This document shows, in pieces, positions 3,922 through 27,156 of a stretch of DNA of 29,330 bases. Each line of letters opens with the position of its first letter. Within the stretch, counting starts at the first letter, position 1. Source of the stretch: Opitutia bacterium (GTDB lineage Bacteria > Verrucomicrobiota > Verrucomicrobiia > Opitutales > T3Sed10-336); NCBI GenBank assembly GCA_050506795.1, contig JBJHCF010000014.1, positions 68,445-97,774 of the forward strand, given 5' to 3'. The notes beneath the pieces were generated by a model. That model saw only the letters and a list, made by a program, of their open reading frames with translations, was not told where the DNA came from and did not search any database. The position numbers and the translations under genes were made by a program.

Positions 3922-3986
3922 TGACGCAAATTCAAAAAGTTATTCCGCAATTTTCCATAGTGCCGAAATCAATCTTTTGGTAAATT
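3922..3986 (+). promoter_or_regulatory. Conserved activator site + promoter, copy 1
   Basis: TGACGCAAATTC-AAAAAGTTA-TTCCGCAATTTT-CCA-TAGTGC-17bp-TAAATT, with extended -10 TG. Confidence 0.85.
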
Positions 3987-4070
3987 ACGAGTTAGATCTT
4001 TTCTGAAATTGATCTCCAAGAATGAGCGAGAATCTCTTCTTTATCGAAAACCCAACACGCAATCATTACA

Positions 4071-4865
4071 ATGAAATCCAAACCCTGCTTCTCTTGGTCC
4101 GTACGTCCGGTTGCGAGCTGTTGTTTTGACTATACCCCCGCAGTATCGTCTGACGCCCATAGGCAAACCGATACATTTGCCTTTAAAAAGTTTAGTCAAC
4201 ACGGATTTACCCTGATCGAATTGCTTACGGTGATTGCGATCATCGCGATCCTGGCAGCCATATTGATTCCGGTCGTCTCATCAGTGAGAAACTCTGCGCG
4301 AACAGCACAGGCGACCAGCAATGTTCGGGAGATTGGGACCCTTACCCATCTTTATATGGACGAGAATAACGGTAGGTTGCCAACCGACCTGTTCGGCAAC
4401 GCTAATGCCAAACCATGGATTGAAGATCTTTGGGAGATAGCTTATCCGGGGCGTGAGTTTCCGGAATTCAATGCCAGTGTCCATGGAAATGAATTGCGCG
4501 ATACGGTCTTTTACACACCGCTCCTGGAAGAGGAAGCGGCTAACGGGGGAATTGCGAGGAGCTTTGGCTGGAGCGTTTCGTTGCGGGTTAACTCTAGAGG
4601 GAGTGTTGCGCAAGGCATGTACCATGGGCACATTTCCGGCGTCCGCAACCCGTCATTGACGGTTGCTTTGTCCGATAGCATGAGCTCGAGTAATATTCGC
4701 GCCGGCAGTCCCCAGATAAATTTCCGCAATAATGGCCGGGCGCTTTTTCTCTTTCTGGACGGCCACGTTGAGTCGCTCAGGCCCGATCAGGTTCCTGAGA
4801 ATGAGAACCACGTGTTTTGGGGCGGGACAAGCGGTGACGAAAGCGGTCCGACTCCTCGCCGGTGA
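4071..4865 (+). CDS. Prepilin-type N-terminal cleavage/methylation protein with H-X9-DG-like C-terminal motif (paralog 1)
   Basis: G|FTLIELLTVIAIIAILAAILIP after a 45-aa leader; C-terminal FRNNGRALFLFLDGHVE. Confidence 0.92.
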   Translation: MKSKPCFSWSVRPVASCCFDYTPAVSSDAHRQTDTFAFKKFSQHGFTLIELLTVIAIIAILAAILIPVVSSVRNSARTAQATSNVREIGTLTHLYMDENNGRLPTDLFGNANAKPWIEDLWEIAYPGREFPEFNASVHGNELRDTVFYTPLLEEEAANGGIARSFGWSVSLRVNSRGSVAQGMYHGHISGVRNPSLTVALSDSMSSSNIRAGSPQINFRNNGRALFLFLDGHVESLRPDQVPENENHVFWGGTSGDESGPTPRR

Positions 4866-4962
4866 AGGGTCGAAAAAGACGGTTGAGGAGGTAGGGGGTT
4901 CACCGATGTGTCCCCTTTATGGCCTCCTTGAAATTCAAACGAATAAACGAAGTAAAGAAAAA

Positions 4963-6807
4963 ATGAGAGCAAATCTTATAACACTATTGATAGTTTCCGC
5001 CTTGAGTTTTTCATTGGCCAGTTCGGTAAGCGCTGATCTCAGGGTGTTCGAACCGTTCGATTTTACTGGTGAAAGACTGGATGGCGCCGGATCCGGAACG
5101 GGCTGGAATGGGGACTGGGTCGGGGGGACCAACGAAGGATTGGAAATGGCTGAGGATGGCCAAAGCCTGGCCTATCCGGATGGGGTTGATTTGGAGGCGA
5201 CGGGTGGGCGTGTCGATTCCTATCGCCCAATGGTTGACGGGGAGTTATCCGGTGCGGCAAGCGAGCGTCTATTGGAGAGCGATTTCGGCCTTGGGGCCGG
5301 GAATCCTACGTATTACCTGAGCTTCCTGGCACGCAAGGATGAGGACGGCTTCTTTCGAATTGAGGCGATGCGTTCCGACGGCATTTCGCGCTGGCGGGTG
5401 CGTGTTGGCGAAGAGGGATCCGTAGGTGTTGGGATGGACATTTGGAGCGACAGTGATGAGGGTGTGATCGAAAGCGGCAGCACGTATCTCGTGGTCAGCA
5501 AGTTTACACCCGGAAACCCGGCTGTTGCCCAGGTGAAAACCTTTGAGACTGGGGTGGACACGGTTCCCTCAAGCGACGCGGGTATCCAATGGGACGCCAC
5601 CGTCAACCGGGCAACCGGCGTGAGTCAGGATCGCTTCTTCATTGCCGTATCGGCCGGCCGGGTCGAGCTGGATGAGTTTCGGTTCGGCACCTCCTGGGAG
5701 GCGGTTGTATTGGGAGCGGAGAAGCCGACATTTGAGAGTTGGCAGGCAACGCACTTTACCCCGCAGGAGCGGGATAATCCGGCTATTAGCGGACCGGATG
5801 CCGACCCGTCCGGGGAGGGGGTGCCGAACCTGATGAAGTACGCCTTTTTCAATGTGGATCCCAAGGAACCGATTGCCAGAAGAATGCTGCCCCAACCTGA
5901 GTTTGTCGATGGGGTTCTTCAATTGACCTATCCCGAGCGTCCTGATGTCGATGACGTCCTGTATACTGTCGAAGTGTCGACGGACTTGGAGGAATGGAGC
6001 AGCGATGCTTCGAGGGTTGCGGAAGTCGCACGGGTCTTCGACGGTGAGTTTGCCGAGCAGGTGACGATGATGGCCTTGCAGCTGGGCGCTTTTTCGGTCG
6101 AGCCATTCGATCTGGCCGGAGACGGCCTGGACGGAAGCGGTTCTGGTAGAGGTTGGGACGGCGAATGGTTTACGACCGAGGGAGACGGTCTCGCTCTTGC
6201 CGCGGATGGCGAAAGCTTGGCGTATCCGGACGGAAGCCTGCTGGTTGCGAGCGGTTCGCGCGTGATGAGTGAAGTGCTGGGCGAGGAGGAAGTTGCGAGC
6301 ACGAGGTTGCTCCGCTCGCCGATTTCCCTCGCGGCAGGGAACCCTCCGATTTACATAAGTTTTCTGGCACGCAGGAGCGAAGACGGGAGTTTCCTTGTGG
6401 AGACCAGGCGCCCGGACGGAATTTCCCGCTGGGGAATCGATGTGTTGTCCAACGGAATCGTGGGGACTCGGGTCGGAGACTGGGTCGACAGCGATCCGGG
6501 AACCTTTGAGGCTAACAATACCTACCTGGTGGTGAGTAAGTTTATACCCGGGGTCGCGGACGTGCAAGTGAAAGTGTTCGAGGTCGGCGTCGACACCGTT
6601 CCGGAAGACGATGCCGACGTGGAGTGGGACGTGGCTGCCAGCGGCCTCACCGGCGTTCAACAGGATCGGATCTCCCTGACGATTCGATCAGGGACGGTCG
6701 AGCTGGATGAACTGCGGATGAGTTCCACCTGGAAGGGAGCGGTGATCGAGGACGAGTCGGTCGATCGCAACTTCATGCGAATACGGCTCACTCAGATTCA
6801 AGAGTAG
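4963..6807 (+). CDS. Secreted acidic protein with two copies of a ~225-aa beta-rich domain and a verrucomicrobial-type C-terminal domain
   Basis: ATG 4963 gives signal peptide MRANLITLLIVSALSFSLASSVSA. Internal repeat EPFD..G..LDG.GSG.GW.G.W ... TYLVVSKF.PG ... VELDE.R....W. Also contains W..THF...DADPSGEGVPNLMKYAF and YTVEVSTDLEEW. Confidence 0.85.
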   Translation: MRANLITLLIVSALSFSLASSVSADLRVFEPFDFTGERLDGAGSGTGWNGDWVGGTNEGLEMAEDGQSLAYPDGVDLEATGGRVDSYRPMVDGELSGAASERLLESDFGLGAGNPTYYLSFLARKDEDGFFRIEAMRSDGISRWRVRVGEEGSVGVGMDIWSDSDEGVIESGSTYLVVSKFTPGNPAVAQVKTFETGVDTVPSSDAGIQWDATVNRATGVSQDRFFIAVSAGRVELDEFRFGTSWEAVVLGAEKPTFESWQATHFTPQERDNPAISGPDADPSGEGVPNLMKYAFFNVDPKEPIARRMLPQPEFVDGVLQLTYPERPDVDDVLYTVEVSTDLEEWSSDASRVAEVARVFDGEFAEQVTMMALQLGAFSVEPFDLAGDGLDGSGSGRGWDGEWFTTEGDGLALAADGESLAYPDGSLLVASGSRVMSEVLGEEEVASTRLLRSPISLAAGNPPIYISFLARRSEDGSFLVETRRPDGISRWGIDVLSNGIVGTRVGDWVDSDPGTFEANNTYLVVSKFIPGVADVQVKVFEVGVDTVPEDDADVEWDVAASGLTGVQQDRISLTIRSGTVELDELRMSSTWKGAVIEDESVDRNFMRIRLTQIQE

Positions 6808-6961: not shown

Positions 6962-9265
6962 ATGTTACACAAGACCAAGAATGAATGCGACCGGCCTATT
7001 GCGTTCAGGGTGACGCTGTCGGGCGTGGTTGTGGCAGCCGTTGCCTTCAGCCTTCGGGGTCCCATTCGCCTTGTTATTGGCGTGGTCCTCCTGGTGTTAT
7101 ATGCTGGGATCGCATCAATCTCGGTAGCGGAAACCCGGAAAACCGAGGGCCACGCCTTTCAGTTTGGTAGTGGTGGCTATCAATTGAGCGTCGAAACCAA
7201 AGCCTTTCGATTCAGCTTCATGGATTCCGAAGGCGCGATCCTGGCGCCGCCCCATGCCGACTCTGGCATTATGATTAACCATCGTCCGGTGCTCAGGGTG
7301 GAAAGGGGCGACAGTCGAGATAACGTATTCATTGTCGAAACGGAGGACGGCACGAAGGCTCGTATCCAGTTTCATCTCGAGGACGGGCACGTCGCTGTCA
7401 CGGTGACCCCTAAGAAGAGCGAGCTTCACAGAATTGCGATACAATTGGGCGGGATGCCGGCGGCGTACGGTCTTGGCGACCATGGAGGCTACCACCACTC
7501 CTTTAATCTTGTTGGCGACGAAGCAACCGAATTCCGTATAGCAGGGCGGCGATGGGTGAGTTCGTTTGCGATCCTTCCTCAGAATCAGCTTGGCGGCGTC
7601 GTTTTCGGTGGAAAGTCTCGCTCTGTGATCCTCGGGCCGGATCAATATACCATGACGGCTGATACCGTGGAACCGATTACGTTCCATTACTTTCTTGGGG
7701 ATCCTTATAAGATTTATGAGAGCTACCTGACGCTGCGGATTCGGGAAGGTTATCCGAATGTTAAACCGAAGTTTCGTTTCTTCGAACTCGGCTGGGAGTC
7801 GTGGGCCGCCCTTGGCTGGCAGGTCAATCAGGAGATGGTGATGCAATCAATCGCTGATTTTCAACGTAATGGCTATCCGATCCGCTGGGCGGTCACCGGG
7901 TCGGGCTTCTGGAGGGAAGGGGGAACCACCACCAGTTTTGGCGAATTCGGCGACACCTTCTCCGATCCCAGGAAATTCAGGGAGCAACTTCACGAGCGGG
8001 ATGTGAAGTGGTTGATTGGATTGCGTACCAATTTCGTTCCACCGGGAGGCCCGTACAAGCCCTATACGGAAAGGCGCGATGTAAATCTCGAGGTCGAGTA
8101 TTTCGATGGCAATCCGTTATCCGAAATCGCTATTGAGAAGGGGTATTTCCTGAAAGATGATGACGGCAACCTGTTCAGCAGACCCTCACCGGTCTTCCCG
8201 CTCGTCAACTGTTACCTTCTGGACGGTCGAAACGAGGCCGCCGCCAAATGGTTCGCCGAGCTGTTCGAAAAGTGGAATGTCGATGGTATCAAGGAAGATA
8301 CGATGATGAGTGTAGGGGAAGAATGGATTGACATCTTCAATCGTCCGCAAATCGAAATCGCGAAGAACGGACATTTGGTCATGGCGAGAAACGGTAGCTT
8401 CACCGCGCCAGGGACGCTTCTGCGTACTGAAGATACCCTGGGCACTCGAAGTTTGCGACACCGGCTTCCGGTCAACTACCTTCAATACGCCGCCTCCGGG
8501 GCGCCGAACGTTTATTCCGATACCATCGGTTTTCGAAATATGGACCGGTATTCCAAGGAGGTGATGCGGCACGGCTGGCTGATGGCCACCACTGCCGGTC
8601 TGTCTGTAGGGGAATCACCGACCGACTGGGCGCCGGATCAGCAGGCGATGTTCAAAAAGATCATCGACTTTCACTATCAGATCGGTCCCTACCTTTATGA
8701 TGCTGCGGTAAAATCCTATGAGACCGGTTATCCCTATACCTTAACCCCTCTGCCAATTGCCTATCCGCACGACCCGGCAACAAGTGAAACGCCCGACTTT
8801 CAATGGATGGCGGGAGAGTCACTGCTCGCCGTGCCGCCGGCAAAGCGACCTGACGAAGACACAATCGACGTGTATCTGCCGGAAGGGATTTGGTTCGATT
8901 ATGAGACAGGTGAACAATACAAAGGGCCGGTGATGCTGGAGGATTTTTTTATGCCGGTTGATAAAACGCCCGTATTTGTCGGAGGGAAGGGAGTCATGGT
9001 CATGAGAGAAAAGGACGAAGAGCTGTTGCGGGCCCGCGTGTATCCGATGGAGCGAGAAGATGAAGTGTTCGTGTTTCACCATCCCGACGGCACGTCAAAA
9101 AGCAGGATTATACTGAATGGCTGGGGCGAGGTTAAACCGATTGTAATCGACGAAGACACAGGAAAGGAAGTCCAGGTTCAGGAGCGAAAACCTGAGGGTA
9201 GTATTTCATTTTTCATCGAGCCAGGGCATAATTACAAGATACTTGAAACGAATGAAGGCTCCTGA
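6962..9265 (+). CDS. Glycoside hydrolase family 31-like protein
   Basis: N-terminal hydrophobic signal, GMPAAYGLGD, AIEKGYFLKD, putative nucleophile region VDGIKED, PYLYDAA...GYP..TPLPIAYPHD, QWMAGESLLAVP and VYLPEGIWFDYETGEQYKG. Confidence 0.85.
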   Translation: MLHKTKNECDRPIAFRVTLSGVVVAAVAFSLRGPIRLVIGVVLLVLYAGIASISVAETRKTEGHAFQFGSGGYQLSVETKAFRFSFMDSEGAILAPPHADSGIMINHRPVLRVERGDSRDNVFIVETEDGTKARIQFHLEDGHVAVTVTPKKSELHRIAIQLGGMPAAYGLGDHGGYHHSFNLVGDEATEFRIAGRRWVSSFAILPQNQLGGVVFGGKSRSVILGPDQYTMTADTVEPITFHYFLGDPYKIYESYLTLRIREGYPNVKPKFRFFELGWESWAALGWQVNQEMVMQSIADFQRNGYPIRWAVTGSGFWREGGTTTSFGEFGDTFSDPRKFREQLHERDVKWLIGLRTNFVPPGGPYKPYTERRDVNLEVEYFDGNPLSEIAIEKGYFLKDDDGNLFSRPSPVFPLVNCYLLDGRNEAAAKWFAELFEKWNVDGIKEDTMMSVGEEWIDIFNRPQIEIAKNGHLVMARNGSFTAPGTLLRTEDTLGTRSLRHRLPVNYLQYAASGAPNVYSDTIGFRNMDRYSKEVMRHGWLMATTAGLSVGESPTDWAPDQQAMFKKIIDFHYQIGPYLYDAAVKSYETGYPYTLTPLPIAYPHDPATSETPDFQWMAGESLLAVPPAKRPDEDTIDVYLPEGIWFDYETGEQYKGPVMLEDFFMPVDKTPVFVGGKGVMVMREKDEELLRARVYPMEREDEVFVFHHPDGTSKSRIILNGWGEVKPIVIDEDTGKEVQVQERKPEGSISFFIEPGHNYKILETNEGS

Positions 9266-9272
9266 CCTACCT

Positions 9273-9352
9273 GAATGCCACTCGGATAAGGCGCTTGATC
9301 GCAGCATTCCGTCTTGCAGGATGACCCTGAACAAGGAAGCGTTCTTCAATCA
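9273..9352 (+). repeat. Dispersed direct repeat, copy A (shared with 19296-19397)
   Basis: gaatgccactcggataaggcgcttgatcgcagcat...gatgaccctgaacaaggaagcgttcttcaatca aligns with copy B; 28 of 30 nt are identical in the gatgaccc...cttcaa block. Confidence 0.85.
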
Positions 9353-9420
9353 CAGATTGCACAGATGGGCACAGATAAGAATTTTCGTCTTTAAATCTGT
9401 GGTCATCTGAGCAATCTGTG
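9351..9420. repeat. Periodic palindromic repeat (3x CACAGAT / 3x ATCTG[T/A]G), REP-like stem-loop
   Basis: cacagat at 9351, 9360 and 9370; atctgtg/atctgag/atctgtg at 9395, 9405 and 9414. Confidence 0.85.
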
Positions 9421-9472
9421 GTCAAAAATATCCCTGATAGGCCAGAGCTGGAGGCGCCGAACCCTGGATAAG

Positions 9473-9537
9473 TGTCGGAAATTCAAAAAACCTTTGCGCA
9501 TTTCTCCATAGCGCCGGAATCGTTGAAGTGTTAGCTT
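9473..9537 (+). promoter_or_regulatory. Conserved activator site + promoter, copy 2
   Basis: TGTCGGAAATTC-AAAAAACCT-TTGCGCATTTCT-CCA-TAGCGC-17bp-TAGCTT, with extended -10 TG. Confidence 0.8.
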
Positions 9538-9626
9538 ATGAGAGGCGTATTCAACAGGGAATGATTGTTAAATAACAATTTAGCAGTATAATCAACATCA
9601 AGAATGTATCCAAGAAAAGGATTATA

Positions 9627-10424
9627 ATGAAACACAGAACCCCGTTTTCTCGATTGGCAGTTCCGTTTGCCGACTTTCGAACAGACTATTCCCCGGCGGC
9701 ATCCTCTGGTAGTCGGCGGCATCCAAGTACGTTTGGGTTTAGAAGGCCTAATCGACACGGTTTTACCCTGATCGAATTGCTTACTGTGATTGCAATTATC
9801 GCGATCCTGGCAGCCATATTGATTCCGGTTGTGTCATCAGTACGTAACTCTGCGAGAACTGCACAAGCAACCAGTAATGTTCGCGAGATTGGCACCCTGA
9901 CTCATCTTTATATGGATGAGAATAATGGTCGGCTTCCAAGCGACCTCTTCAATAATGCCAATGCGAGACCATGGATCAACGACCTTTGGAATATCGCCTA
10001 TCCAGGCCGTGCTTTTCCGGAAGGATTTGGTGCCGGTGGCCATGGAAGAGTATTGCGTGATACGGTCTTTTACACACCGCTCCTGGAAGAGGAAGCGGCT
10101 GACGGGGGAATTCCGAGAAGCTTCGGCTGGAGCGTTTCACTGCGGCTTAACACTGCCGGGAGTGTTGCTCAAGACAGATTTCATGGACATATTTCCAAGG
10201 TCCACAATCCGTCATTGACGGTTGCTTTATCCGATAGCATGAGCTCGAGTAATATCCGCGCCGGCAGTCCCCAGATAAATTTCCGCAATAATGGCCGGGC
10301 GCTTTTTCTCTTTCTTGACGGCCACGTGGAGTCGCTCAGGCCCGATCAGGTTCCTGAGAATGAGAACCACTTTTTTTGGGGCGGGACAGAAGGTGATGTA
10401 AGCGCTCCGACCCCGCGCCGATGA
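9627..10424 (+). CDS. Prepilin-type N-terminal cleavage/methylation protein (paralog 2)
   Basis: Same architecture as 4071..4865; the mature N-terminal ~58 aa and most of the C-terminal part are identical to it. Confidence 0.92.
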   Translation: MKHRTPFSRLAVPFADFRTDYSPAASSGSRRHPSTFGFRRPNRHGFTLIELLTVIAIIAILAAILIPVVSSVRNSARTAQATSNVREIGTLTHLYMDENNGRLPSDLFNNANARPWINDLWNIAYPGRAFPEGFGAGGHGRVLRDTVFYTPLLEEEAADGGIPRSFGWSVSLRLNTAGSVAQDRFHGHISKVHNPSLTVALSDSMSSSNIRAGSPQINFRNNGRALFLFLDGHVESLRPDQVPENENHFFWGGTEGDVSAPTPRR

Positions 10425-10491
10425 GTTTCGAGCCAGACAGTTGAGGAGGTAGGAGTTTCACCGATGTGCCCCCTTGAGAGCCTCCCCGAAA

Positions 10492-10746
10492 ATGTTTGAC
10501 TTTATGGATGCGCACTTGGATGGCGCCGATACCGTTCCGGAGGATGATGCCGATGTGGACTGGGACGTGGCTGCCAGCGGCCTCACCGGCGTTCAACAGG
10601 ATCGGATTTCCCTGACAATTCGAGCGGGAACGGTCGAGCTGGATGAACTGCGGGTGAGTTCGACCTGGAAGGGAGCGGTGATCGAGGACCAAGCGCTCGA
10701 TCGCAACTTCATGCGGGTACGGCTGACCCAGATTACAGAGGATTAG
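10492..10746 (+). pseudogene. Internally deleted remnant of a duplicate of gene 4963..6807
   Basis: FDF....LDGA (matches ~5056-5089) joined directly to DTVPEDDADV...RNFMRVRLTQI (matches 6592-6807); no signal peptide. Confidence 0.9.
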
Positions 10747-10845
10747 GAAGAGGAGGAGGACGACGAGGGGTAGGGAATAGTTGAATGTAACGATTTTGAG
10801 AGGGGCTCCAGGTCCGCACGCGAACGGACGCCCCCGGCAACGCTA

Positions 10846-13800
10846 ATGTTTTGTGATAAGAGGCCTATGTTTAGATATCCAATGTTCCGCAAGCGATCGA
10901 AGTTCTTTCTCCTCGGCCTGGCGTTCTCGTTAGGCGTCGGATGCCCGGCGGCGTTGGCGGGTTCCCTTGAAGACGGCTTTCGTAATCCCTCCGATACCGC
11001 CCGCCCCCATACATGGTGGCATTGGATGAACGGGCATGTTTCGAGCGAAGGGATTACTCGCGAGCTTGAGGCGATGAAGGAGGCGGGGCTGGGCGGTTTC
11101 ACGCTCTTTAACGCCAGCGAGGGCACCCCGGCGGCGGGGCCGGTGGATTATTTGAGCGAGGAATGGTGGGCGTTGCTCGAGCATACGATGCGGGAGGCGG
11201 ACCGGCTCGGCCTCGAGATGGGAATCCATAATTCCGCCGGATGGGCCACCACCGGGGGTCCGTGGGTGACGCCCGAGTTGGCGATGCAGGAGGTGGTTTG
11301 GACCGAGAAGCGGGTTGCGGGTCCGGCGACCTTCGACGGAGTGCTCGAAATACCCGAGCCGGCGCTGGGCATCGAGCGGGATATGGCGCGCGATCCCGAG
11401 GTGAACCAGAGGTATTATGTGCCGAGGGAGAAAGTGCGCGGTTATTATCGGGATATCGCTCTATTCGCGTTCCCGACGCTAGGTTCGGACGTAAGTGGCA
11501 GGCCGTTTCGGCTGGAGAACTGGCGTCCGAAGGCTGGCTTCGCGAAATTGAGAGGTGGGTACTCTCCCGATGACCGTCTGGCGCCGGTCGAAGACCGAAT
11601 CGATCCGAGTGAAATGATAGAGCTGACCTCCCGGCTCGACAGCGACGGACGGCTCGTGTGGGACGTGCCGCCGGGAGATTGGACGCTGCTTCGTATTGGC
11701 TATCAGCCCACCGGCCGGCAAAACCATCCGGCGCCCGTGGGCGGGCGGGGATTGGAGATCGACAAGCTTTCAGCCGCCGCGGTCGATCATCACTGGAGCA
11801 ACTCGATCGCGAAGATCATCCACGCCGCGGACGATAATGCGGGCGGGGCGTTCAATGCCGTCTTGATCGACAGCTATGAAGTGGGGCACCAAAACTGGAA
11901 TCATTCCATTGCTCAGGATTTTCGCCATCAGCGGGGTTACGACCTGACCGGCTATCTCCCCGCTCTGACCGGCCGCGTTGTCGGCGATGTGGAAACGACC
12001 GAGCGGTTTCTGTGGGATTTTCGCAAGACGATCAACGATTTGATGGTGCGTAACTACTTTGGCCGTTTTGCTGAGCTTAGTCGCGGAAGCGGTCTGACGT
12101 TTTCGGCGCAAACTTATGGAATATACGGCAACTTCGACGATTTTCTCGCATCCGGCGTCCCGGATCGGCCCATGACGGAGTGGTGGGCCTTTCGTAACAG
12201 TCCCTATTACGCCGTGACGGCGAAGATGTCCTCTTCCGCGGCGAACACTTACGGGCGGAAAATCGTCGACTCCGAAGCCTTTACCGGCCCGCCGGACAGC
12301 ATATTTGAAGAGCATCCGTACAGCTTGAAGGCGCAGGGAGATTACTTCTTCACCCTGGGTGTGAACCGGTACACGTTCCACACGTTCGTACACGATCCTT
12401 ACAATGTGCCGCCCGGCATCGGGCTGGGCACCTACGGATCGCGCTTCGATTCACGCAATACGTGGTGGCCTTATGCGCGAGCATGGACGGATTACGTCGC
12501 CCGCTGTCAGCATATGCTCCAGGAAGGCCGTTTTGTGGCGGATCTCCTCTATTTTACCGGCGAAGATGCCCCGCAGGAAGGGACGCCACGGGACGGGCTC
12601 GTTCCGCCTCCGCTCGCCGGTTTCGATTACGATTTCGGAACGCGGGAGATTCTGGAGCGAATCGAGGTCCGCGATGGGCATCTGGAGCTTCCGAGCGGAA
12701 TGAGCTATCGCGTGCTGGTCCTGCCCGACTCCCCGCACATGCGCCCGGATGTTTTGCGCACCATCGAAGAACTGGTGGCTGCCGGTGCGGTTGTCGTGGG
12801 ACCGAAGCCGGAACGGGTGCCCGGATTGGAAGGGGGAGTGGAGGCCGAGGAGAAACTCCTGCGGTTGGCGGATCGTTTGTGGGGAGAAAGTGACGGAGAG
12901 CCGGTCACGGTGAGCCGTTATGGAGAGGGACGCATCCACCGGGGAGCGCCGCTGGAGTCGATCCTTGCCGAAATGGAGTTGAAGCCCGACTTTTCCTTCG
13001 AGCTCCTGAGCGAAGGCGACTTCGGAGAAACCCAGTATCCCGGGGACGGCGTGGAATACATTCATCGCCGTGCCGATGACGCCGACTATTATTTTGTCAG
13101 CAATCAGCATCACAAGCCGAAGCGGATTGAAGCGACCTTCCGAATCTCCGGGCGGTTGCCGGAGTTGTGGCACCCGGATACGGGTCGAACGGAGATTGCG
13201 CCCCGGTTTCGCGACACGGGGGACGGGCGGACGGCGGTGACGCTCGACCTGGATCCCGCGGGCTCTCTTTTCGTCGTCTTCCGGCGCCCCATCGAAGGGC
13301 ATTCCGGAGTTGTGGCGGTGGAAGGAGGCGACGGCGGTTCCAATGACGTGTGCCTGCGACGAAACGGGGAAACCCTGGTTTTGCGGAGCCGTGAGCCGGG
13401 CGATTTCCAGGTAACGATGGAGGGAGGCCAGGTCAAACAGGCAACGGTTGCCTCGGTTCCCGCTCCGGTGGATTTATCCGGCCCGTGGGAAGTGTCGTTT
13501 CCGGAGGGATGGGGCGCACCCGAACGGATTGAAATACCCGAACTCATTTGCTGGACCGGGCATGAGGATTACGACGTGCGGCATTTTTCGGGAACGGCGA
13601 CCTATCGCAAGGAGTTGGACCTTCATGACGATCTGTTCAAAGACGACGTGGTATTGACCCTCGATCTGGGCGCAGTGGAGGTTCTGGCCGAGGTGTGGGT
13701 GAATGGCAGGAATCTCGGTGTCTTATGGAAGCAACCTTACGCGGTGGAGGTCACCGATGCGCTGCAACCCGGAAACAATGACATGGAGATCCGCGTGACG

Positions 13801-14076: not shown

Positions 14077-14116
14077 ACCGCGTTTGGGGAACCAAACCCG
14101 CATCCCGGAAACGAAT

Positions 14117-14420: not shown

Positions 14421-14504
14421 CCCGTCATGGCTTTGCCGCGGTCAATGTCGAACCGAAGAAGAAGATCGTAAGGGTGCTGCCGGATGAGAATGCCCAGGGA
14501 GCCG

Positions 14505-15273: not shown

Positions 15274-15343
15274 GTCGAAGGGTTTTACCAAAAAAGAACC
15301 CGGAGAATGTATTCTGCCTCATATATAGCTCGAATCCGTTTGC

Positions 15344-17338: not shown

Positions 17339-17403
17339 ACGGATTCTCTCGAAAAATACGCCATAGGGCATCCCCGTTCGGCGCCGCGGGAGCAGTGAAA
17401 GGG

Positions 17404-17675: not shown

Positions 17676-19259
17676 ATGAGAACCTCGAATATGAATCCAG
17701 TAAAAACTAAAACCGCGATAATCATATCGCTTGCGACACTCGGTTCGATGGCAGGACTGATTCTTTCAGTAGCCGATGCCAACGCCACGGATCGGGAAAG
17801 ACCGAACATGATCGTGATCCTGGCGGACGACCTTGGTATCGGCGACATTGGGGCCTACCGTTCCATGTATCCGGGAGAAGATGACAAGCCCCGCGCCTAT
17901 CGGCACACGTCACAGCTCGATCGGCTTGCCGAGCAGGGGATTCGCTTCACCCGCGCCTATGCGACGAGTTGGTGCGCACCGAGTCGCCAGATGCTGCTGA
18001 GCGGTCAATGGGCCAATCGGACCGACGCTTACGATTATCCGTGGATCGGCGCCATGCTGCGTGAGCAAGGCTACGTTACCGGTATGATCGGCAAATCCCA
18101 CGGCGCCCGTCCCACTCACAAGGTCTTCTCAGACACCGATCCGAAAACGGCCGAGTTCGACGACGGCCTTCTCTTCATTGGGGGTGAGCGGGACTTTTAC
18201 ATGACGCGTGGCGAGACACTCCCGGGCCGGAGGGATTTCGAGGGGGCGCCCTTTACCGCCGAAGGGGGCGAATACCTCACCGATGTCTTCACGGACCGCG
18301 CCGTTGAGTTCATTGATCGGCACGCCGGCGGCGAGCGTCCCTTCATGCTCTACCTGGCTCATCTCGCGCCACATTCGCCGCTCCAGGGGGAGCCCGGGGA
18401 TATGCGCAAGCTCTTCCCCGACATCTTCGGAGACCTGTCAGATGAGGAAATTCGGGCCACCGGTTGGCCCTTGGGGCGGGGCGGCAAATACGAGGCGCAT
18501 CACTACGCCGCCCTGGTTTACTCGCTTGACCGCAGCCTGGCTCGCATCATGGAAGCATTGGAAAAAACCGGTGTTTCGGACAATACGCTTATTATCGTTT
18601 CCAGCGACAACGGTGCGGTCCATGGCTCGAACTACCCGCTTACCGGAAAGAAGTGGGATCTTCTGGAGGGCGGCATCCGCGTGCCCTTTATCGTCTGGTC
18701 GCGGGAGATCGCGAATTCGGCGGCATCCGGATCGATCTATGACGGCCTGGTCTCGCTGGCTGATATTGCTCCGACACTGCTGGCACGGGCGACCAACGAT
18801 GCTTATCCCCAACCGACGGATGGAATTGACTTAATTCCTTACGCCATGGGCGAGCGATCAATGCCCACAGCCCGGCTCTATTTCTGGGCTAATAGGTCGA
18901 TCCGGCAGTTCCTCAACGATTTCGACCTGTTTGAGCCGGAGGGTGAGCATCGGGAAATGGTCCAGTCGGTGTTGATCGAAGACCATCAGAAGCTGTTGCG
19001 CTGGCGGATTCCCGGAACGACGAGGATTGGCGCCGTTCACGTCCGTTTGCCCGACGCCCGGGGTGCTGCCGATCCGGTGGAAGTCCTGCGCGAACGGGTG
19101 CCGCGGGCGGGCGTGCTGCCCGAAGATGAAGCGGGAGGGAGAATGCTTCAAGAATGGCGTCAACTGGTGCTGACCCAAGAGACACTCTTCCCGGAATGGA
19201 CCGGAACCGAGTCGCAGCGCATGAAGGAAACCGAACCGTTTCAGATCAAGAATCACTGA
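17676..19259 (+). CDS. Sulfatase (S1 family, Cys-type)
   Basis: Signal peptide, RPNMIVILADDLG, CAPSR, PFMLYLAHLAPHSP, NTLIIVSSDNG and LEGGIRVPFIV. Confidence 0.92.
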   Translation: MRTSNMNPVKTKTAIIISLATLGSMAGLILSVADANATDRERPNMIVILADDLGIGDIGAYRSMYPGEDDKPRAYRHTSQLDRLAEQGIRFTRAYATSWCAPSRQMLLSGQWANRTDAYDYPWIGAMLREQGYVTGMIGKSHGARPTHKVFSDTDPKTAEFDDGLLFIGGERDFYMTRGETLPGRRDFEGAPFTAEGGEYLTDVFTDRAVEFIDRHAGGERPFMLYLAHLAPHSPLQGEPGDMRKLFPDIFGDLSDEEIRATGWPLGRGGKYEAHHYAALVYSLDRSLARIMEALEKTGVSDNTLIIVSSDNGAVHGSNYPLTGKKWDLLEGGIRVPFIVWSREIANSAASGSIYDGLVSLADIAPTLLARATNDAYPQPTDGIDLIPYAMGERSMPTARLYFWANRSIRQFLNDFDLFEPEGEHREMVQSVLIEDHQKLLRWRIPGTTRIGAVHVRLPDARGAADPVEVLRERVPRAGVLPEDEAGGRMLQEWRQLVLTQETLFPEWTGTESQRMKETEPFQIKNH

Positions 19260-19295: not shown

Positions 19296-19397
19296 GAATG
19301 CTACTCGGTAAGGCCCTCGCTCGTAGTATCGACGCTTCCATGCTCAACGAGCTCGTCGAAGTTCGATGACCCCGAACCAGGAAGCGTTCTTCAACCA
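19296..19397 (+). repeat. Dispersed direct repeat, copy B (3' exon side of the intron remnant)
   Basis: gaatgctactcggtaaggccctcgctcgtagtat...gatgaccccgaaccaggaagcgttcttcaacca; similarity to copy A ends exactly at the intron boundary. Confidence 0.85.
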
Positions 19398-19846
19398 GTA
19401 GAGTGGAGAGTGACGGGCGGCTGTCGCAGAGCGGTGCCTTTCCCGTCACTCCCCCTCGTCGAACCGGACGTGCGGTTTTCCCGCATCCGGCTCTCCTGCA
19501 AGCATTTCGTCATGGGCGTGTCAGTCCCAGTTTCTGGAGGTACTGATAATGTCTCATTCCCGGTGGTCGGGAGTATTTGCGTTGGCTGCGCCGGTTCAGA
19601 TGCGTGATCATTCTTTGGCGGGTGCAGTGGCCGAGGTCGCGGAACGTTTTTCGCGGATTGCCGAAGTTGAAGTACCCACACCACCCTCGCAGGAAGGTGT
19701 TCAGATCCTCCACGATCATCGGACTGGGCTTGTAACACATGCGCGGTCCAGTTTTCTCTCGGATCGCTTCACGTGCCTTGCCCAGGGACTTCTTTGAGGG
19801 GATCACATTCAGGTATTTTCGGTTACGACCGTCCAAGTCACGGTCG
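19398..19846 (-). mobile_element. 5'-truncated group II intron: maturase X-domain remnant (stop at 19510), domain V (19461-19493) and domain VI
   Basis: Minus strand GAGCCGGATGCGGGAAAACCGCACGTCCGGTTC (DV, AGC triad), then a GAGTGACGGG...CCCGTCACTC stem ending CCACTCTAC. Peptide PSKKS...LNTFLRGWCGYF...LGL. No YADD and no endonuclease domain. Confidence 0.93.
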
Positions 19847-19912
19847 ACAGGGCAGAACCCGCAGCAGTGGTATCGGTTGTTCTTGGCGCAATTTCGAAAG
19901 GTTTTTGCCAAG

Positions 19913-19977
19913 TGGCGCAAATTCGAAAATCATTTCCGCATTTTGGGGTAGTGCCGGGATCGATATTTCGGCACCAT
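19913..19977 (+). promoter_or_regulatory. Conserved activator site + promoter, copy 4 (extra half-site at 19884)
   Basis: TGGCGCAAATTC-GAAAATCAT-TTCCGCATTTTG-GGG-TAGTGC-17bp-CACCAT. Confidence 0.8.
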
Positions 19978-20031
19978 CAGGTATTCGCAAAAAGTTGAAT
20001 GATATTAACCCAAAAGATGAACCCAATAAAA

Positions 20032-20916
20032 ATGAAAACCTCCAAACTCACATCGTGCGCAGCGCTCGGCTCAGTCGCAGCCTTGCTGTTCTCGGCAGCC
20101 AATACCAACGCGGCCCTTATCGCCTACGAGGGCTTCGACTATGCCGGAGGTCAAAGTTTAACGGCTGTAACCGAGAACGGAGGCACCGGCTGGGCTGCTG
20201 CTTGGGAACAAGGGGTCACCGGTGTTCCTGGAATCCCAGTCAGCGGCACCGGCATGAGTCTGAATTTCTCCCAGTCTCCGGTCTTGATAAACGATGGGTC
20301 CAGTCACATTTTTGCAACGGGCAACACGGCAAATAAAAGAGACTTGGCGACCGGCGTAAATATGGGGTCCTCCACATTGTATGCAACGATGCTCATTCGA
20401 TCGTTTATCGATGATGATCAGTCTGGAGGCGGATCGCTGATGCGTCTGGAGTTCTTTGATGGTGCCGGGGCCACGGGGAACATGCGGGGAAATGTGGGAA
20501 TCGATAATGGCGCGCTCTTTGTTTCCGCTGCCAGCGGTGGTTTTTCTCCAGCAAGCGGCGATAGTTTGAGTGATGCCTTCCAGGACGAAACAACCTACCT
20601 GCTCGCGATGAAACGCACCGGCTCGGGCATTTCCGCCTCATTGATCGAGGCCGATGGCGACCTTTCGACCCTTGAACCGGAGCCAACTTCCTGGCAGGTT
20701 AACCACGACGGACTTACCGGGGTAACTTTCAACTCCTTGAGACTTATTATGAACGGAACGGACACGGGCCTGCGTGCGGATGAGTTGCGTGTGGCGACCA
20801 GCTGGGACGATGCGGTGGCGGGAATGGCTATTCCGGAGCCAGGCACGTACGCCGTCATGATGTCTCTACTCTGCGGTGGTTTGGTATTCTATCGCCGTCG
20901 AATGTCACGCAGATAG
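20032..20916 (+). CDS. PEP-CTERM sorting domain protein (start may be 20017)
   Basis: Signal peptide ending TNA; C-terminal IPEPGTYAVMMSLLCGGLVFYRRRMSRR. Confidence 0.92.
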   Translation: MKTSKLTSCAALGSVAALLFSAANTNAALIAYEGFDYAGGQSLTAVTENGGTGWAAAWEQGVTGVPGIPVSGTGMSLNFSQSPVLINDGSSHIFATGNTANKRDLATGVNMGSSTLYATMLIRSFIDDDQSGGGSLMRLEFFDGAGATGNMRGNVGIDNGALFVSAASGGFSPASGDSLSDAFQDETTYLLAMKRTGSGISASLIEADGDLSTLEPEPTSWQVNHDGLTGVTFNSLRLIMNGTDTGLRADELRVATSWDDAVAGMAIPEPGTYAVMMSLLCGGLVFYRRRMSRR

Positions 20917-21000: not shown

Positions 21001-21160
21001 GATTCGAGACGGTTATCAAATAGCCGCCTATTTCAACTTTTGATTGCACCAGCAAGGAGGAGAGCGCCCTCCATTTCGGTGCACGAAAAGTTATTCTTTG
21101 CCCGGACCGGGGAAAGAAGCAGGCAGATTGAAAATGAGATTCTGAAAGAGCTTGATCTTT

Positions 21161-22642
21161 ATGAAAGGAAATACGTGGAAACCAGGAAAACAATTGTTTC
21201 ACCGGAAACTTCTTATGACCGGTTTACTGGCAGGCGGCACGTTGCTCGGTGGTTTGAGTAATAGTGAAGCAAGCAACGGGGAAAGGCCGAACATCCTGTT
21301 CATCCTGGTGGATGACCAGCGGAACGACACGCTCGGTTGTGCGGGACACCCGGTGATCCAGACGCCTCATATCGACAGACTGGCGCGCGATGGGGTGCGT
21401 TTCGAAAACGCCTTTGTCACCACCTCTATTTGTATGGCCAGCCGCGCGACCATTCTGACCGGTCTGACCGAGACCGGTCACGGTTACACCGGTGGTCAGC
21501 TCCCCGCGACGCCTTTGTTGAAGGAGGACATCGATACTTCTTTTCCCATCAAACTCCGGGACGTTGGGTATCGAACCGGTTTCTTTGGCAAGGTGCACCT
21601 CAGATTCCAGGAGGCGAAACAGGCTGAGATCGACCGTCTTTTTCACGAATTCGAGGAGATCAACCTCAACCCCTACTTCAAGGAGTTGCCCGACGGCACC
21701 CTGCGGCATGAGGCGGACTTAATCGGGGACTATTCGGTCGAGTTTCTCGAAGACCAGCCGAAGGAGCTGCCGTTCTTTCTCTACATGAGTTTCAATATCG
21801 CCCACGCCGAGGACAGCGACCACCGGCCCGGGATCGGCCACTTCCCCTGGCCCCCTTCGGCCGATGGATTGTATGAGGATATCGATCCGGCTCCGCCGCG
21901 TCTGGGCGACGAGCGTTATTTCGACGTTCACCCCGATTTCCTGAAAAACTCGCTCAACCGTGAGCGCTGGTACTGGCGCTGGGATACTCCGGAAAAATAC
22001 AGGCTCAATATGCGCGCTTATTACCGGATGCTGACCGGGATGGACAACGTGGTGGCCCGCGTGCACCGGAAGTTGGAGGACTTGGGGCTGGCCGACAACA
22101 CCGTGGTGATCTACAGCGCCGACAACGGGTTCTACATGGGCGATCGCGGATTTGCCGGCAAATGGAGCTACTACGAGGAGTCCTTGCGGGTGCCGCTGAT
22201 CGTTTACGATCCGCGTCTGCCCGAGGAACAACGCGGCCGGGTTGTCGATCCCCTGGCTTTGAATCTCGATTTTCCGTCGACGATCCTTGAACTCGCGGGC
22301 ACCGAGGTCCCCGAAAAGTACCAGGGCCGCAGCCTTTTGCCCATCATTCAAGGGGAGACGCCGGTCGACTGGCGGACCGACTTCTTCTGCGAGCACCGTT
22401 ACAATCACGAACAGTTGCCGAAGTGGCGCGGCGTGCGCGGGGAGCGCTTCACCTATGCGCACTATTATGAAGAGGACTACGAGTTCCTTTTCGACCTGAA
22501 GCGCGATCCCACGCAGTTCCAGAACCTGGCAAAGTATCCGAACCACCGATCCACGCTCGAGCAACTCCGGGCTCGGGCCAAAGAGTTTGAGGAGAAGTAC
22601 ACCCGCCCGGAGGTCGTGTCTTTCAAGGAAGTTCTTCAATAA
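21161..22642 (+). CDS. Sulfatase (S1 family, CxAxR variant)
   Basis: RPNILFILVDDQR, SICMASRATILTG, NTVVIYSADNG, GKWSYYEESLRVPLIV and FLFDLKRDP.Q..NLA. Confidence 0.93.
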   Translation: MKGNTWKPGKQLFHRKLLMTGLLAGGTLLGGLSNSEASNGERPNILFILVDDQRNDTLGCAGHPVIQTPHIDRLARDGVRFENAFVTTSICMASRATILTGLTETGHGYTGGQLPATPLLKEDIDTSFPIKLRDVGYRTGFFGKVHLRFQEAKQAEIDRLFHEFEEINLNPYFKELPDGTLRHEADLIGDYSVEFLEDQPKELPFFLYMSFNIAHAEDSDHRPGIGHFPWPPSADGLYEDIDPAPPRLGDERYFDVHPDFLKNSLNRERWYWRWDTPEKYRLNMRAYYRMLTGMDNVVARVHRKLEDLGLADNTVVIYSADNGFYMGDRGFAGKWSYYEESLRVPLIVYDPRLPEEQRGRVVDPLALNLDFPSTILELAGTEVPEKYQGRSLLPIIQGETPVDWRTDFFCEHRYNHEQLPKWRGVRGERFTYAHYYEEDYEFLFDLKRDPTQFQNLAKYPNHRSTLEQLRARAKEFEEKYTRPEVVSFKEVLQ

Positions 22643-23404: not shown

Positions 23405-23514
23405 TTTGCCCAATTTTTTGTTTTCTCTTCAAAATTCTCCCGCCTTCTTGTCATGATATTTCCTCTTTTAGTCCCTTAATTCTGAAATCTTGCGCAAATC
23501 GCGCAAAATTTTTT

Positions 23515-23578
23515 GGAAGGCAACGCTCCGCCGTTGCCGCCGGATCGGCGAATCGGCAACGGCGGAGCGTTGCCCTCC
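23515..23578. repeat. REP-like inverted repeat, 25-bp arms with 1 mismatch and a 14-nt loop
   Basis: GGAAGGCAACGCTCCGCCGTTGCCG ... CGGCAACGGCGGAGCGTTGCCCTCC. Confidence 0.88.
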
Positions 23579-23669
23579 ACGTAACTCCTTATTGGCACCG
23601 GCTTCGCCGGGTTGGGAGTCTGTCGGCGAAGCCCGACAGAGTCATAGCCTCGGCGGGTTCGTTGGGATG

Positions 23670-26600
23670 TCATGGTGCCACGCCGATCCGTTTTGTTTCG
23701 CTTTCGAAAGTGGAGCTGTCCGGGAGTTGGCCGCTGGCGCGGAATTCGAGGAAGTCAACGCCGTTGGGCACGGGGATGGTGAATTCGAAGGGATAATCCT
23801 CATCGGTCAGGCGGCCGGAATTGTCTCCGGCGGACCATTCGACCGTGAAGTTCCTGAGATCCTGCTGGTAGCCGGCATTCCAGATGAAGGCGCTCCAGTC
23901 ACCGGGCGCGGCCTGGATGGCGGCGGCGGAGGTTTTTGGGGCGCCTTCGGTTTGGACTTCGACGAAGCCCGGCGCGCTGGGTTCACCGGGATCGGAAAAA
24001 CGTTGATGGGTGGGCACTGAAATGGAGAGCCCGTCGATCCGGAGAACCACAAGCCCGCGCGGTTCGATCGTCAATGAGGCGGTGTTGTCGCTGAGGGGCA
24101 ATTCGGCGTTGTTGTCGCCGACAAGCCGCGCACGGGTGAAGTTGCCCGCCTGCGGCGAAATCGCCTCGGGATGCATGCGAACGCCGACGGTTTCGGACTC
24201 ACGGTTCTGGTTCATCAGAATGACGTAGAAGCTGTCCCCGTCATGGGCGGTGAGGTGGTTGATTTGCGGATTGTCCAGTTTCACCAGTCCCCGCCGCAAC
24301 CAGAGCCAGACATTGTCGTCGCCGAAAACATGGCCGGGGGCATGGCCGTACACGAGGTTGTCGAAGTAGGCGTAGTTGACCTGGCGCAGCCCGGGGAAGT
24401 CGACGGCGCCCTCGGAGAGAAGGAAGGCGTCGCTGACGAGGTAGTCGATATTCCAGGCGAGGTGCGTGGGAATGTGGTGGTAGTAGATGAAGCCGAAATC
24501 CGGACCCTCGTAGGGGAAGCTTGGATTTTGGGCGAGGTCGGTGAAGGTGGTGTAGTAGTAGCCGGGGTAATTGCTCCAGCGGCCGACGGTGGCGTTGCGC
24601 GCGTAGGCGGCGAACTGTTCGTCGCCGGTGTGGTGCGCCAGCCGCAGGAACCAGGGCGCCCAGTTGGCCATCGTGATCATGCGGCCGCCGTTGTCCCGAT
24701 AGGAGTAGGTGGAGGGCTGTTCCAGACCAAGCCCGACGTTGGAGACCAGCCAGTCGGCCACCCGGGTTTCGGAGACGTCGCCGGGAGCGATGGGGAAACC
24801 GAGACGAAAGGTTTCGCCTCCCTTGTGAAGGCGCAGGTGCATTTTGTCGCCGTCGATCCGGCCGCCCGGATGAATGGTGACCTCCTCCATTGCCGGGGTC
24901 GGCTGGGTCCACATCCCGGTCATGACCTGGCGGGCGCCGAAGACGGCAGCGTCGAGGAAGCGTGGCTCGCCGGTTACTTCGTAAAGCCGAAGCAAGCCTT
25001 CCCAGTCGGGCGTATGATGTATCAGAAAGAACCCGGAAATATTCACCTCTCCGGTGGAAGGAACCTCAAGGACCTCCTCGATATAGGCGTCCGCGGTGCG
25101 GATCGCGCGGTCCAGCGCGAACCGCTCGCCGGTCAGAAGATAGCGTTCCAGCCAGTCATTGAGACTGCCCCCCTTGACTTCGTCGCCGGAGAGCGCGATC
25201 TCCCGGAAAATGGGCGTGCGCTCGTTGAGGGCCTTCCAATAGCCGCCGTAAACAGCAGTCCCGTAGCCGCCGACCGGTCCGCTCATCCGGCCTCTCATAT
25301 CGCCGCGGAAGTCGGAGGGTACCGGGGCGAAGTGAAAGGCATCGCGCGAGAGCAGGTATTCGATGGTCGGGCGGGCGCGTCGCTCGAAAACCTCACGGTC
25401 GCCGGTGAGATTATAGAGGGAAAGGGAGAGCAGGGGGGAGGATTGGGTGACCGCGTTCCTGCCTTCGATCTGGTAGAAACCTTTCCCCTCCTTCCACCAG
25501 CCGCCGTAGGTGTCGTCCATGAACAGATCGATCATGTTGAGCACCGCCTCGGTCAGGGAAACCCGGCCGCTCTTGCGGTAGTCACGCCATTGAAAGATTT
25601 CATCGGCGCCGTGCGGTAGCCGGCGTACCAGTCACCGTTTTCGGCCAAAAGGCGAAGGGTGAACTCGATCGGTTGCCGCGCCTCGGCCGCCGCGTGCCGG
25701 GTGCCGATCAGCGGTCCGTAAATGGACGACTGAACCTTGCCATTGGGGCTGCGGATCTGCAGGCCGAAACGCGAATCGATGGGAGTGGGAAACTCGAATG
25801 GCACGGATTCGGCGTCCGCCGCCAGGCCGAGCGTAATCGAGCCCTCGGGATGCCGGAGCTCCGCCAGCGAAACGGGTGTCGGGCTGCTGGCTCCAAGCAC
25901 GGTGTAGGCTTGCGTGGGAAAGCGTCGCCGGTTGACCACCGGCGGCAGGAGAAGCTCCTGCACATCGGACATGTCGAATTCACCGGGGAAGAAGTAGCCC
26001 AGCGAGTATTGGCCCGAATGGGACGGGGTGAAGCGGAGACGGATTTTAACGCTCGTTTCTCCGGAGGCGAGCTCCCAGTCCGCTTCCAGGCGACCGGTTT
26101 CGCTGGGGTGGAATTCGAGTTGAATTCTGTTTTCCGAAGCCTGGCGAACGGATTGAACAATGAATTCCTCACCGATCCCGGCGTCCCATACGACGTACGG
26201 GGAGGTTGCGGTGGACACTTCGGTGCTCACACCATCGACTTCAATGCGGTTCGTCTTGTCCGGACGGTTGCTCCAGCGGGGATGAAAGGTGTTGACCACG
26301 CCCAGCAGTTCGGTTTCCGGAAGGGCGGAGAGGACTTGGTAGGATTCCGCCGACGGATCGCCGGGGAATGCGCGCCAGGAGTCGCCGTCCCGAACCCTTA
26401 TGACGGGCGCGGCGCTGTCTTGGCCGTTGCGGGTCACCGGGTGGAAGCGCACCTGGACGTGTTCATTCTCCAGCTCTGCCAGAACCACCGTGGAATCGAG
26501 GTTGCCGGCGGACGAGACCGGAACCGAAGGGTCGGGGAGCTCGATCGGAACGGACTCGAGGGCGGGAAGACCCATCTCGTCGAGCGTCCCCTCGGGCACG

Positions 26601-27085
26601 AAATCCGGGTCCGCGCTCAGGATGATTGCGTCGGCCCGGGCGAAGTGAACGCTGTCGTTGTCGGTAATGCTCAACAGTGTCTTGCCGCTCTCAAGCTCGA
26701 AACGGTCGCCTTTCTCCCATGTCCAGCCGCTTTTGCCGCTGACACCGAACGGGGTGGAGTTCATGCGTCCTCCAATGGAAACGTTGAAATACCGGCTCCC
26801 CGGATTCTGCTCCGGAAAATCGGTGGAGCGAACCCATAGCGTGTATCGGCCCTCGCGGGGAATTTGGACCGCGGTGACCGCCGGGGTGGAAGCGCCGTCG
26901 TTTCCGGAGAAAAGAATGCGACCGCCGGAAGCTCCAGGGGCTGAGGGGAGCTCCCAGTGGCCGGTGAGTTGGAAATCCTCGCATTCCAGGCCGTGGTTTT
27001 GAGCGGGAATCGTTGTCCAGGGCGACAGAAAGAGGGTCGCGAGAAAAGCTTTGAGGGCGACGGTGCGAAAGGTCGGGAGGTACAT
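23670..27085 (-). CDS. Large secreted protein of unknown function (~1140 aa), split by a single frameshift near 25605-25610
   Basis: ORF 25553..27085 has a signal peptide and reads ...GDWYAGYRTA. The adjacent frame continues ADEIFQWRDYRKSGRVSLTEAVLNMID into ORF 23670..25544. Helical motifs such as LLRLYEVTGEPRFLDAA suggest an alpha/alpha barrel. Confidence 0.8.
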
Positions 27086-27091
27086 GTATTG

Positions 27092-27156
27092 AATTTAACA
27101 AGCATATCTTTCCGCTACTATCGAATAATACGGAAAGAGTTTTAGGATTTGCGTCA
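27092..27156 (-). promoter_or_regulatory. Conserved activator site + promoter, copy 5
   Basis: Minus strand TGACGCAAATCC-TAAAACTCT-TTCCGTATTATT-CGA-TAGTAG-17bp-TAAATT, with extended -10 TG. Confidence 0.85.

Follow-up and report, generated by a model that had tools for sequence, protein, structure and literature searches.

Escherichia coli XylR occupies sites of ~37 bp that consist of two direct repeats beside a poor −35 element, binds DNA only together with xylose—contacted by residues Y18, D65, W135, R139, D219, and Q237—and is proposed to recruit RNA polymerase (PMC3561964). At E. coli xylE, XylR has a pair of neighbouring sites that differ in preference (PMC6375646). In Vibrio, the XylR-family activator XylRA serves a beta-1,3-xylan locus through direct-repeat sites before five genes, which were found by cross-genome comparison and confirmed by electrophoretic mobility shift assay (PMC12125979). 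E. coli AraC uses the araI1–araI2 pair, 17-bp direct half-sites 4 bp apart, the second of which overlaps the −35 (PMC11983282). Here, we describe a promoter element that is repeated five times in a 29,330-nucleotide stretch of DNA from an Opitutia bacterium (assembly GCA_050506795.1, contig JBJHCF010000014.1, positions 68,445 to 97,774; hereafter, the window), which also encodes a XylR-type regulator at 2599–3798 (+). Judged from sequence comparison, it is highly probable that this repeat is an activator-dependent sigma-70 promoter and the docking site of that regulator.

Geometry of the shared promoter element

Motif columns are numbered from the first base of half-site 1 (+0), and each copy is 65 bp long. 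An earlier reading of the letters of this DNA—the original prediction—had placed five ungapped copies at 3922, 9473, 15209, and 19913 on the + strand and at 27156 on the − strand, and all coordinates and strands proved correct. The same holds for the geometry it had described: the half-sites start at +0 and +21 in every copy (21 bp apart), TAG stands at +36 in all five, and the −10 hexamers (TAAATT, TAGCTT, TAGGGT, CACCAT, and TAAATT) occupy +59 to +64 behind a 17-nt spacer, with an extended −10 TG in three of the five (3922, 9473, and 27156).

This similarity is more than chance would deliver. The best five-way 48-nt match among the ten intergenic regions scores 143 of 192, as compared with 101.2 ± 1.6 in 20 dinucleotide shuffles, and with leave-one-out matrices the omitted copy ranks 5th to 7th of 9,877,298 genome positions, only other copies being placed above it. 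Among the five copies, identity amounts to 0.86 in half-site 1, 0.82 in half-site 2, and 1.0 in the TAG, and to 0.25 in the 4-nt gap (columns 17–20, which are unconstrained), 0.26 in the upstream flank, and 0.22 in the downstream flank. Prepilin-type paralogous genes stand behind three of the five copies, and pairs of non-paralogous copies show the same block pattern as the full set. Conserved boxes between random flanks, also in the non-paralogous pairs, fit selection on the blocks rather than a residue of duplication.

When sites 1–4 were scanned for consensus sigma-70 promoters, none passed, that is, their −35 and −10 elements are poor, as is the case in XylR family operators. The gene behind site 5 has the A of its ATG (27085) on column 71, which is the canonical and predicted +1. 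This coincidence is an independent fit to the geometry and predicts a leaderless mRNA, so that the site 5 transcript likely starts at its own initiation codon. An Rfam scan at the sites matched no structured RNA.

Further sites in the genome

The genome contains nine sites in total. C14 denotes the contig that holds the window, and C57, C22, and C19 are other contigs of the same genome. In addition to the five window copies, there are four others. One, C14:68179 (+), precedes the flavoenzyme gene and lies 265 nt ahead of the window; the other three are C57:378 (+), C57:24645 (−), and C22:4156 (−). Of these, C57:24645 and C22:4156 reside within a 181-nt duplicate of 92% identity. TAnnnT is present at +59 in all four. 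Between the end of C14 and the start of C57 there is a unique overlap (118 of 139 positions identical, at a low-quality end), and eight sites hence likely belong to one region of ~54 kb, with the ninth on C22. The C57 part encodes an SSS transporter, GH78-like and beta-helix proteins, and two paralogues of an unknown 1000-aa protein. The genome has ~20 pilin-like matches, yet no site beyond the nine, so that the motif is not a general pilin promoter.

Where the flavoenzyme gene begins and where C14 and C57 meet, the sequence is interrupted by a scaffold gap and low-quality stretches (C14:68435-68560 and C57:1-110). The 54-kb region is flanked by transposase-like genes at C14:65824-67344 (assigned by eye) and C57:26164-27783 (Pfam DDE_3). 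Neither regulator nor motif is present in the two same-genus genomes searched, which are 67% and 92% complete. A pattern search across the order returned nine matches in this genome and 10 in nine of 400 other genomes. The latter were treated as chance: all 10 lie inside open frames, one of them has TA at +36, and in the five of the nine matching genomes that were searched no regulator homologue exceeds 31% identity.

The motif travels with the regulator

For a comparison across species, 82 loci of close regulator homologues (mostly 42–60% identity, 888 kb) and 20 loci of distant XylR homologues (27–34%, 337 kb) were fetched and scanned at a threshold of 14 bits with a matrix of columns 0–29, built from eight of the nine genome sites with the duplicate omitted. 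The close set yields 65 matches in 48 of its 82 loci, the distant set none, and 4.94 Mb of the genome 6 background matches; reversed controls in an 87-locus set give 2 matches versus 66 true ones. With the regulators clustered at 75% identity, 20 of 31 clusters carry the motif. The scan of genome and relatives that the original prediction had suggested thus returned nine sites at home and a motif that keeps to close relatives of the regulator.

Thirty-eight of the 65 matches lie ≤300 nt from the regulator gene, a zone that makes up 5.6% of the flanking bases. Of these, 19 follow the regulator gene on its own strand, 17 lie upstream of it in divergent orientation, 2 lie upstream on its own strand, and none lies downstream on the opposite strand. 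The motif is hence not scattered regardless of gene orientation: 36 of the 38 point away from the regulator gene and toward the adjacent gene. What stands behind the foreign sites varies, including flavoenzyme, MFS transporter, pilin-like, GH16, sulfatase, dehydratase, and autotransporter-repeat proteins.

The columns that were not part of the matrix allow for a further look at the promoter register. From the 65 matches, 64 have full flanks and 44 remain after dereplication; among these 44, T36 is found in 37, A37 in 30, and G38 in 26. TA occurs at +36 in 30 of the 44 versus 0–3 at other offsets between 30 and 57, and the −35 reads TAG, TAT, or TAC in 29 and TTG in 2. NAnnnT at a spacer of 16–18 nt is present in 37 of the 44, as compared with 2–9 at 18 other offsets. 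Conversely, when the 44 foreign sites were made into a matrix, the nine genome sites took ranks 1–9 (32.9–49.7 bits), the next position scoring 19.4. A single distant case was observed at L023:1764 (+), where a 20.9-bit site accompanies a XylR homologue of 32% identity, whose DNA-binding helices are similar and whose sugar pocket is different.

The XylR-type regulator

The regulator (2599–3798, +; its start is perhaps the ATG at 2665) combines a LacI-like sugar-binding domain with a C-terminal AraC double helix-turn-helix. PF13377, PF12833, and PF00165 score above their cut-offs and PF22177 weakly (24.1 bits versus a cut-off of 27). With phmmer, residues 23–393 align with E. coli XylR 4FE4 over the full length (E 1.9e-42), and 4fe4_A is also rank 1 in Foldseek. 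By these matches the protein is assigned to the XylR structural family; it is no xylose-type orthologue. No second full-length XylR-type regulator was found in the genome.

The helix residues R324, R325, L327, and E328 do not vary in any of the 119 homologues. The first recognition helix reads SRRxLERR here versus SRSNLEKR in E. coli XylR, and this change goes along with a changed operator core, CGCA. In many relatives, a divergent site lies within ~70 nt of the regulator's own start, which may allow for autoregulation.

Proposed mechanism

We propose that the regulator, with its inducer sugar bound, would dock on the pair of 17-bp direct half-sites, which are spaced by two helical turns, and would then bring RNA polymerase to a weak −35 overlapped by half-site 2. 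In this way, hydrolases, sulfatases, a transporter, the flavoenzyme, and pilin-like surface proteins might all be switched on by one sugar signal. The original prediction had the XylR-type protein activate five units. Co-occurrence, position, and register argue for this protein, and the regulon is extended to nine sites; that it binds them, and that it activates rather than represses, is what we infer.

On the AraC ruler, half-site 2 spans +21 to +37 and has two bases in common with the −35. The −35 might read TAG and not TTG because half-site 2 ends on the second base of the −35, which would thus serve both elements; this base, +37, mirrors the A at +16 that is conserved in 8 of 8 genome sites and 38 of 44 foreign sites. 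The region 4.2 helix of RpoD is identical to that of E. coli, which suggests that TAG strikes a compromise between what the activator and what the sigma factor require, keeping basal transcription low; RpoD would be the sigma factor acting at the sites. As a lineage-wide −35, TAG is not supported: in 1973 upstream regions, it is not raised 16–18 nt before strong −10 hexamers, in a test of low power, as TTG itself is raised only weakly in the same regions. That the TAG might be a co-evolved lock—one base serving the activator at the cost of sigma-70 recognition—belongs to a wider pathway reading given below, and together the two fall somewhat short of an even chance.

Alternative explanations

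A number of observations weigh against the XylR-type protein acting at a simple activator-dependent promoter. The foreign sites were chosen with this genome's matrix, which makes the reciprocal ranking partly circular, and the 82 loci are redundant and mutually related. At 14 bits, 34 of the 82 close loci have no match, and neither have 18 of the 56 loci with a full-length homologue and at least 300 nt on both sides; a 45%-identical homologue in G009 has no site in ~27 kb (best 9.3 bits). The flavoenzyme gene co-occurs as well, so that linkage alone would not fully separate regulator from pathway. The genome itself has a gene for a second RpoD-like sigma factor, on C19, and the promoter-like stretch at 9565–9592 could drive unit 2 independently, such matches being not enriched. 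Of the two E. coli operators, IA agrees with the register more clearly than IF does when the latter is aligned by its −35. In addition, a CGGAAT-like box at +42 to +47 has no explanation in the XylR model. Its identity is 0.80 in the five window copies and 0.76 in the non-paralogous pairs, the blocks on either side reaching 0.37 and 0.41.

This box might be read by a second factor, so that the XylR-type protein would bind and not suffice, or the unliganded regulator might repress. The conservation of the box between weaker blocks would fit such a factor, as would the imperfect inverted repeat that it forms with half-site 2 and the GntR/UTRA regulator encoded at C57:24911. Yet the identity of the box drops to 0.49 with the inclusion of three more genome sites and to 0.26 in the 44 foreign sites, and the palindrome of half-site 2 and CGGAAT is not enriched as a second genome-wide motif, with 137 occurrences at the 16-nt spacing versus 124–161 at other spacings. 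Moreover, E. coli XylR is described as not binding DNA when its ligand is absent (PMC3561964). Taking these points together, we regard a second reader of the box, or repression by the unliganded protein, as unlikely.

A different regulator or an alternative sigma factor might also read the entire motif, with the XylR-type gene merely riding along in the module. The cupin-AraC gene at C22:325 and the GntR gene at C57:24911 lie near outlying sites, the RpoD-like factor on C19 is a candidate, and CGGAAT resembles a −35 of extracytoplasmic function (ECF) sigma factors. Promoters of ECF sigma factors bear a GGAA-type −35 and a conserved −10 about 16–17 nt downstream; here, the box is present in the five copies, yet identity from +65 to +109, where that −10 would fall, is 0.22. 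Neither the GntR nor the cupin-AraC gene has a homologue in the 82 loci, and among the classified neighbour clusters no other regulator family recurs. The site geometry, on the other hand, equals that of the known XylR operator, and the distant L023 homologue—similar in its DNA-binding helices, different in its sugar pocket—has the motif, albeit as one case. A foreign reader of the motif is therefore granted a slim chance. The slimmest is left to the idea that the copies lack a shared regulatory role and are what duplications of promoters with their genes have left behind, or else the ends of a mobile cassette, which we find hardly credible. It could draw on the paralogous genes behind three copies, on the duplicate that contains C57:24645 and C22:4156, and on the repeats or intron remnant that some sites adjoin. 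However, the flanks are random here where the boxes are conserved; the motif also occurs in unrelated loci of the Planctomycetes–Verrucomicrobia–Chlamydiae (PVC) group, before unrelated genes and with fixed −35/−10 spacing, and its sites have no Rfam match.

Inducer and pathway

None of the six xylose contacts of E. coli XylR is identical in the regulator (Y18W, D65R, W135Y, R139Q, D219S, and Q237P), two of the changes being conservative aromatic swaps; hence, the inducer is probably not xylose. Among the 119 homologues, the D219 column holds S, A, T, or G, H or Q predominates in the R139 column, and some distant homologues retain W, R, and D at three xylose-contact positions. The window genes and the classified neighbour proteins include no xylose isomerase, xylulokinase, or ABC transporter. 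Our best guess, and a weak one, is an acidic or otherwise modified sugar that is released from the target glycan.

The commonest conserved neighbour of the regulator subfamily is a homologue of the flavoenzyme, found in 32 of the 82 loci, followed by an MFS transporter in 23, which is closest to the D-galactonate type (217.6 bits, below the cut-off of 395). Prepilin-type genes recur in 16 loci, the 1000-aa unknown protein in 14, and the GH31-like enzyme in 7, and a sugar-acid dehydratase-like gene stands behind a site in one locus. With tblastn at E 1e-8, the window pilin, PEP-CTERM-like, 4966–6807, and 27391 transporter proteins are unmatched in the 82 loci; the pilin-like genes there are thus of the same type, not close relatives. 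For the flavoenzyme and the 1000-aa family, no solved-structure relative was found, and the GH31-like protein is matched only via its C-terminal part. Atlas matches, consulted in an attempt to name the substrate, were unnamed or generic, and a literature search on PF12831 returned nothing relevant.

Tentatively, and as one joint proposition with the co-evolved −35 described above, the operator might mark a PVC-wide pathway for an acidic or modified sugar that did not appear in the literature searches. Its core would consist of the XylR subfamily, the orphan PF12831 flavoenzyme of ~780 aa, and an anion-type sugar-acid transporter, joined by a divergent GH31-like enzyme and the unclassified ~1000-aa protein. 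The regulon would repeatedly recruit surface proteins of pilin-like, PEP-CTERM, and autotransporter-repeat type.

Units and other features of the window

By its gene content, the window is a glycan-utilisation cluster that encodes a PF12831 flavoenzyme, the XylR-type regulator, three prepilin-type genes, GH31-like and GH106-like enzymes, two sulfatases, a beta-helix protein, esterases, a probable transporter without Pfam hit, and gene remnants. The flavoenzyme, an FAD-dependent oxidoreductase (PF12831), occupies 78–2438 (+), with its true start before the window and behind the sixth site, C14:68179 (window −265).

Site 1 (3922–3986, +) has its half-sites at 3922–3938 and 3943–3959, its −35 at 3958–3963, an extended −10 at 3981–3986, and a predicted +1 at 3993. 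It precedes a prepilin-type gene (4071–4865), an unknown exported protein (~4966–6807), and a GH31-like gene (6962–9265). Site 2 (9473–9537, +; predicted +1 at 9544) precedes a prepilin-type paralogue (9627–10424), a GH106-like gene (10846–14076), and gene remnants (14084–15075). Behind site 3 (15209–15273, +; predicted +1 at 15280) follow a prepilin/beta-helix fusion at 15344–17338 (+), in which a prepilin-type N-terminal methylation motif is joined to a beta-helix enzyme-like body, an esterase fragment (17335–17673), and a sulfatase (17676–19259). Site 4 (19913–19977, +; predicted +1 at 19984) precedes an exported protein (19999–20916) with a PEP-CTERM-like tail recognized by eye and no Pfam hit, and a sulfatase (21152–22642). 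A degenerate 29-bp tandem copy of its upstream part (19884–19912, +; 17.0 bits) adjoins a truncated group II intron.

Site 5 (27092–27156, −; predicted +1 at 27085) heads a frameshifted gene (27085–23670) for an unknown protein of ~1100 aa and a GDSL esterase (23413–22712). The former is one gene in two frames, as the 974-aa paralogue at C57:474 aligns across both open reading frames; the break near 25600 may be a real frameshift or an assembly error. Divergent from site 5, a gene at 27391–28917 (+) encodes a 508-aa membrane protein that resembles NCS1 permeases by eye and has no Pfam or solved-structure match; no motif site was found for this transporter gene.

The locus looks recently rearranged. 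Of the 4966–6807 gene, both the start and the end are kept as a deletion remnant at 10425–10748, downstream of the second pilin gene. Two more remnants of this kind are a fragment at 14084–15075, which by eye resembles the N-terminus of the GH31-like protein and is followed by a beta-helix tail, and a truncated SASA esterase at 17335–17673. The 3' remnant of a group II intron lies at 19398–~19830 (−), with an Rfam match to RF00029 at 19398–19495 (49.1 bits) preceded by a frame that resembles a maturase C-terminus by eye; the remnant ends just upstream of site 4, and no full copy of the intron was found elsewhere in the genome. Palindromic intergenic repeats similar to repetitive extragenic palindromes, with many genome copies, are present at 9272–9448, 19328–19398, and 23467–23616, two of them upstream of sites 2 and 4. 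Near-consensus sigma-70 promoters are matched at 2510–2539 (+) before the regulator and at 9565–9592 (+) before the second pilin gene; in the region, 12 such matches were found versus 9.6 ± 3.4 expected, which is no enrichment.

Significance and comparison with known systems

In the literature searched, which covered few subscription journals and did not extend to RegPrecise, no published XylR-family motif for Verrucomicrobia was found, and searches on Verrucomicrobia promoter maps and on co-regulated pilin/PEP-CTERM genes returned nothing relevant. For this lineage, an operator, start sites, and a regulon boundary are now predicted. These would link one sugar signal to proteins without a known function: the PF12831 flavoenzyme, the ~1000-aa protein, and the pilin-like and PEP-CTERM-like proteins. 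The regulator's inducer, if found, would indicate the substrate of the module in many loci of Verrucomicrobia, Kiritimatiellae, and Lentisphaerae.

The control design itself is textbook, as E. coli XylR and Vibrio XylRA demonstrate, and of low surprise. What appears new at the sequence level is the operator of this subfamily, the proposed explanation of the TAG −35 by operator overlap, and the recurring module with its orphan flavoenzyme. In the original prediction, AraC had served as the model. Its direct half-sites two helical turns apart beside a weak −35 stand; the closest model, however, is E. coli XylR and not AraC. AraC matches in layout (17-bp half-sites, a 4-bp gap whose columns 17–20 are unconstrained here, and −35 overlap), whereas it senses through a beta-barrel and has four base pairs in common with the polymerase site versus a predicted two here. 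Vibrio XylRA likewise has XylR-family direct-repeat sites across one polysaccharide locus. It senses xylose and uses an AT-rich motif like that of E. coli, in contrast to the invariant CG cores and uncharacterised targets of the present sites.

E. coli XylR (PDB 4FE4/4FE7; xylAB and xylFGH operators IA and IF) has the same LacI-type sensor and AraC-type DNA-binding domain over the full length, with 107 of 378 aligned residues identical to the regulator described here. In the K-12 record, the repeats of operator IA begin 36 and 15 nt before the −35, with the −10 at +59, which is the register of the present sites. The differences lie in the core (CGCA here, GTGAA in E. coli), in the −35 (TAG versus TTG), and in the arrangement, with nine mostly single sites here and a divergent pair in E. 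coli. Neither the xylose-type operator consensus gaAa-a-a-AAT nor the linkage to xylose genes that E. coli XylR and Vibrio XylRA have in common is found here—the present system has the register of operator IA with a core and a gene neighbourhood of its own.

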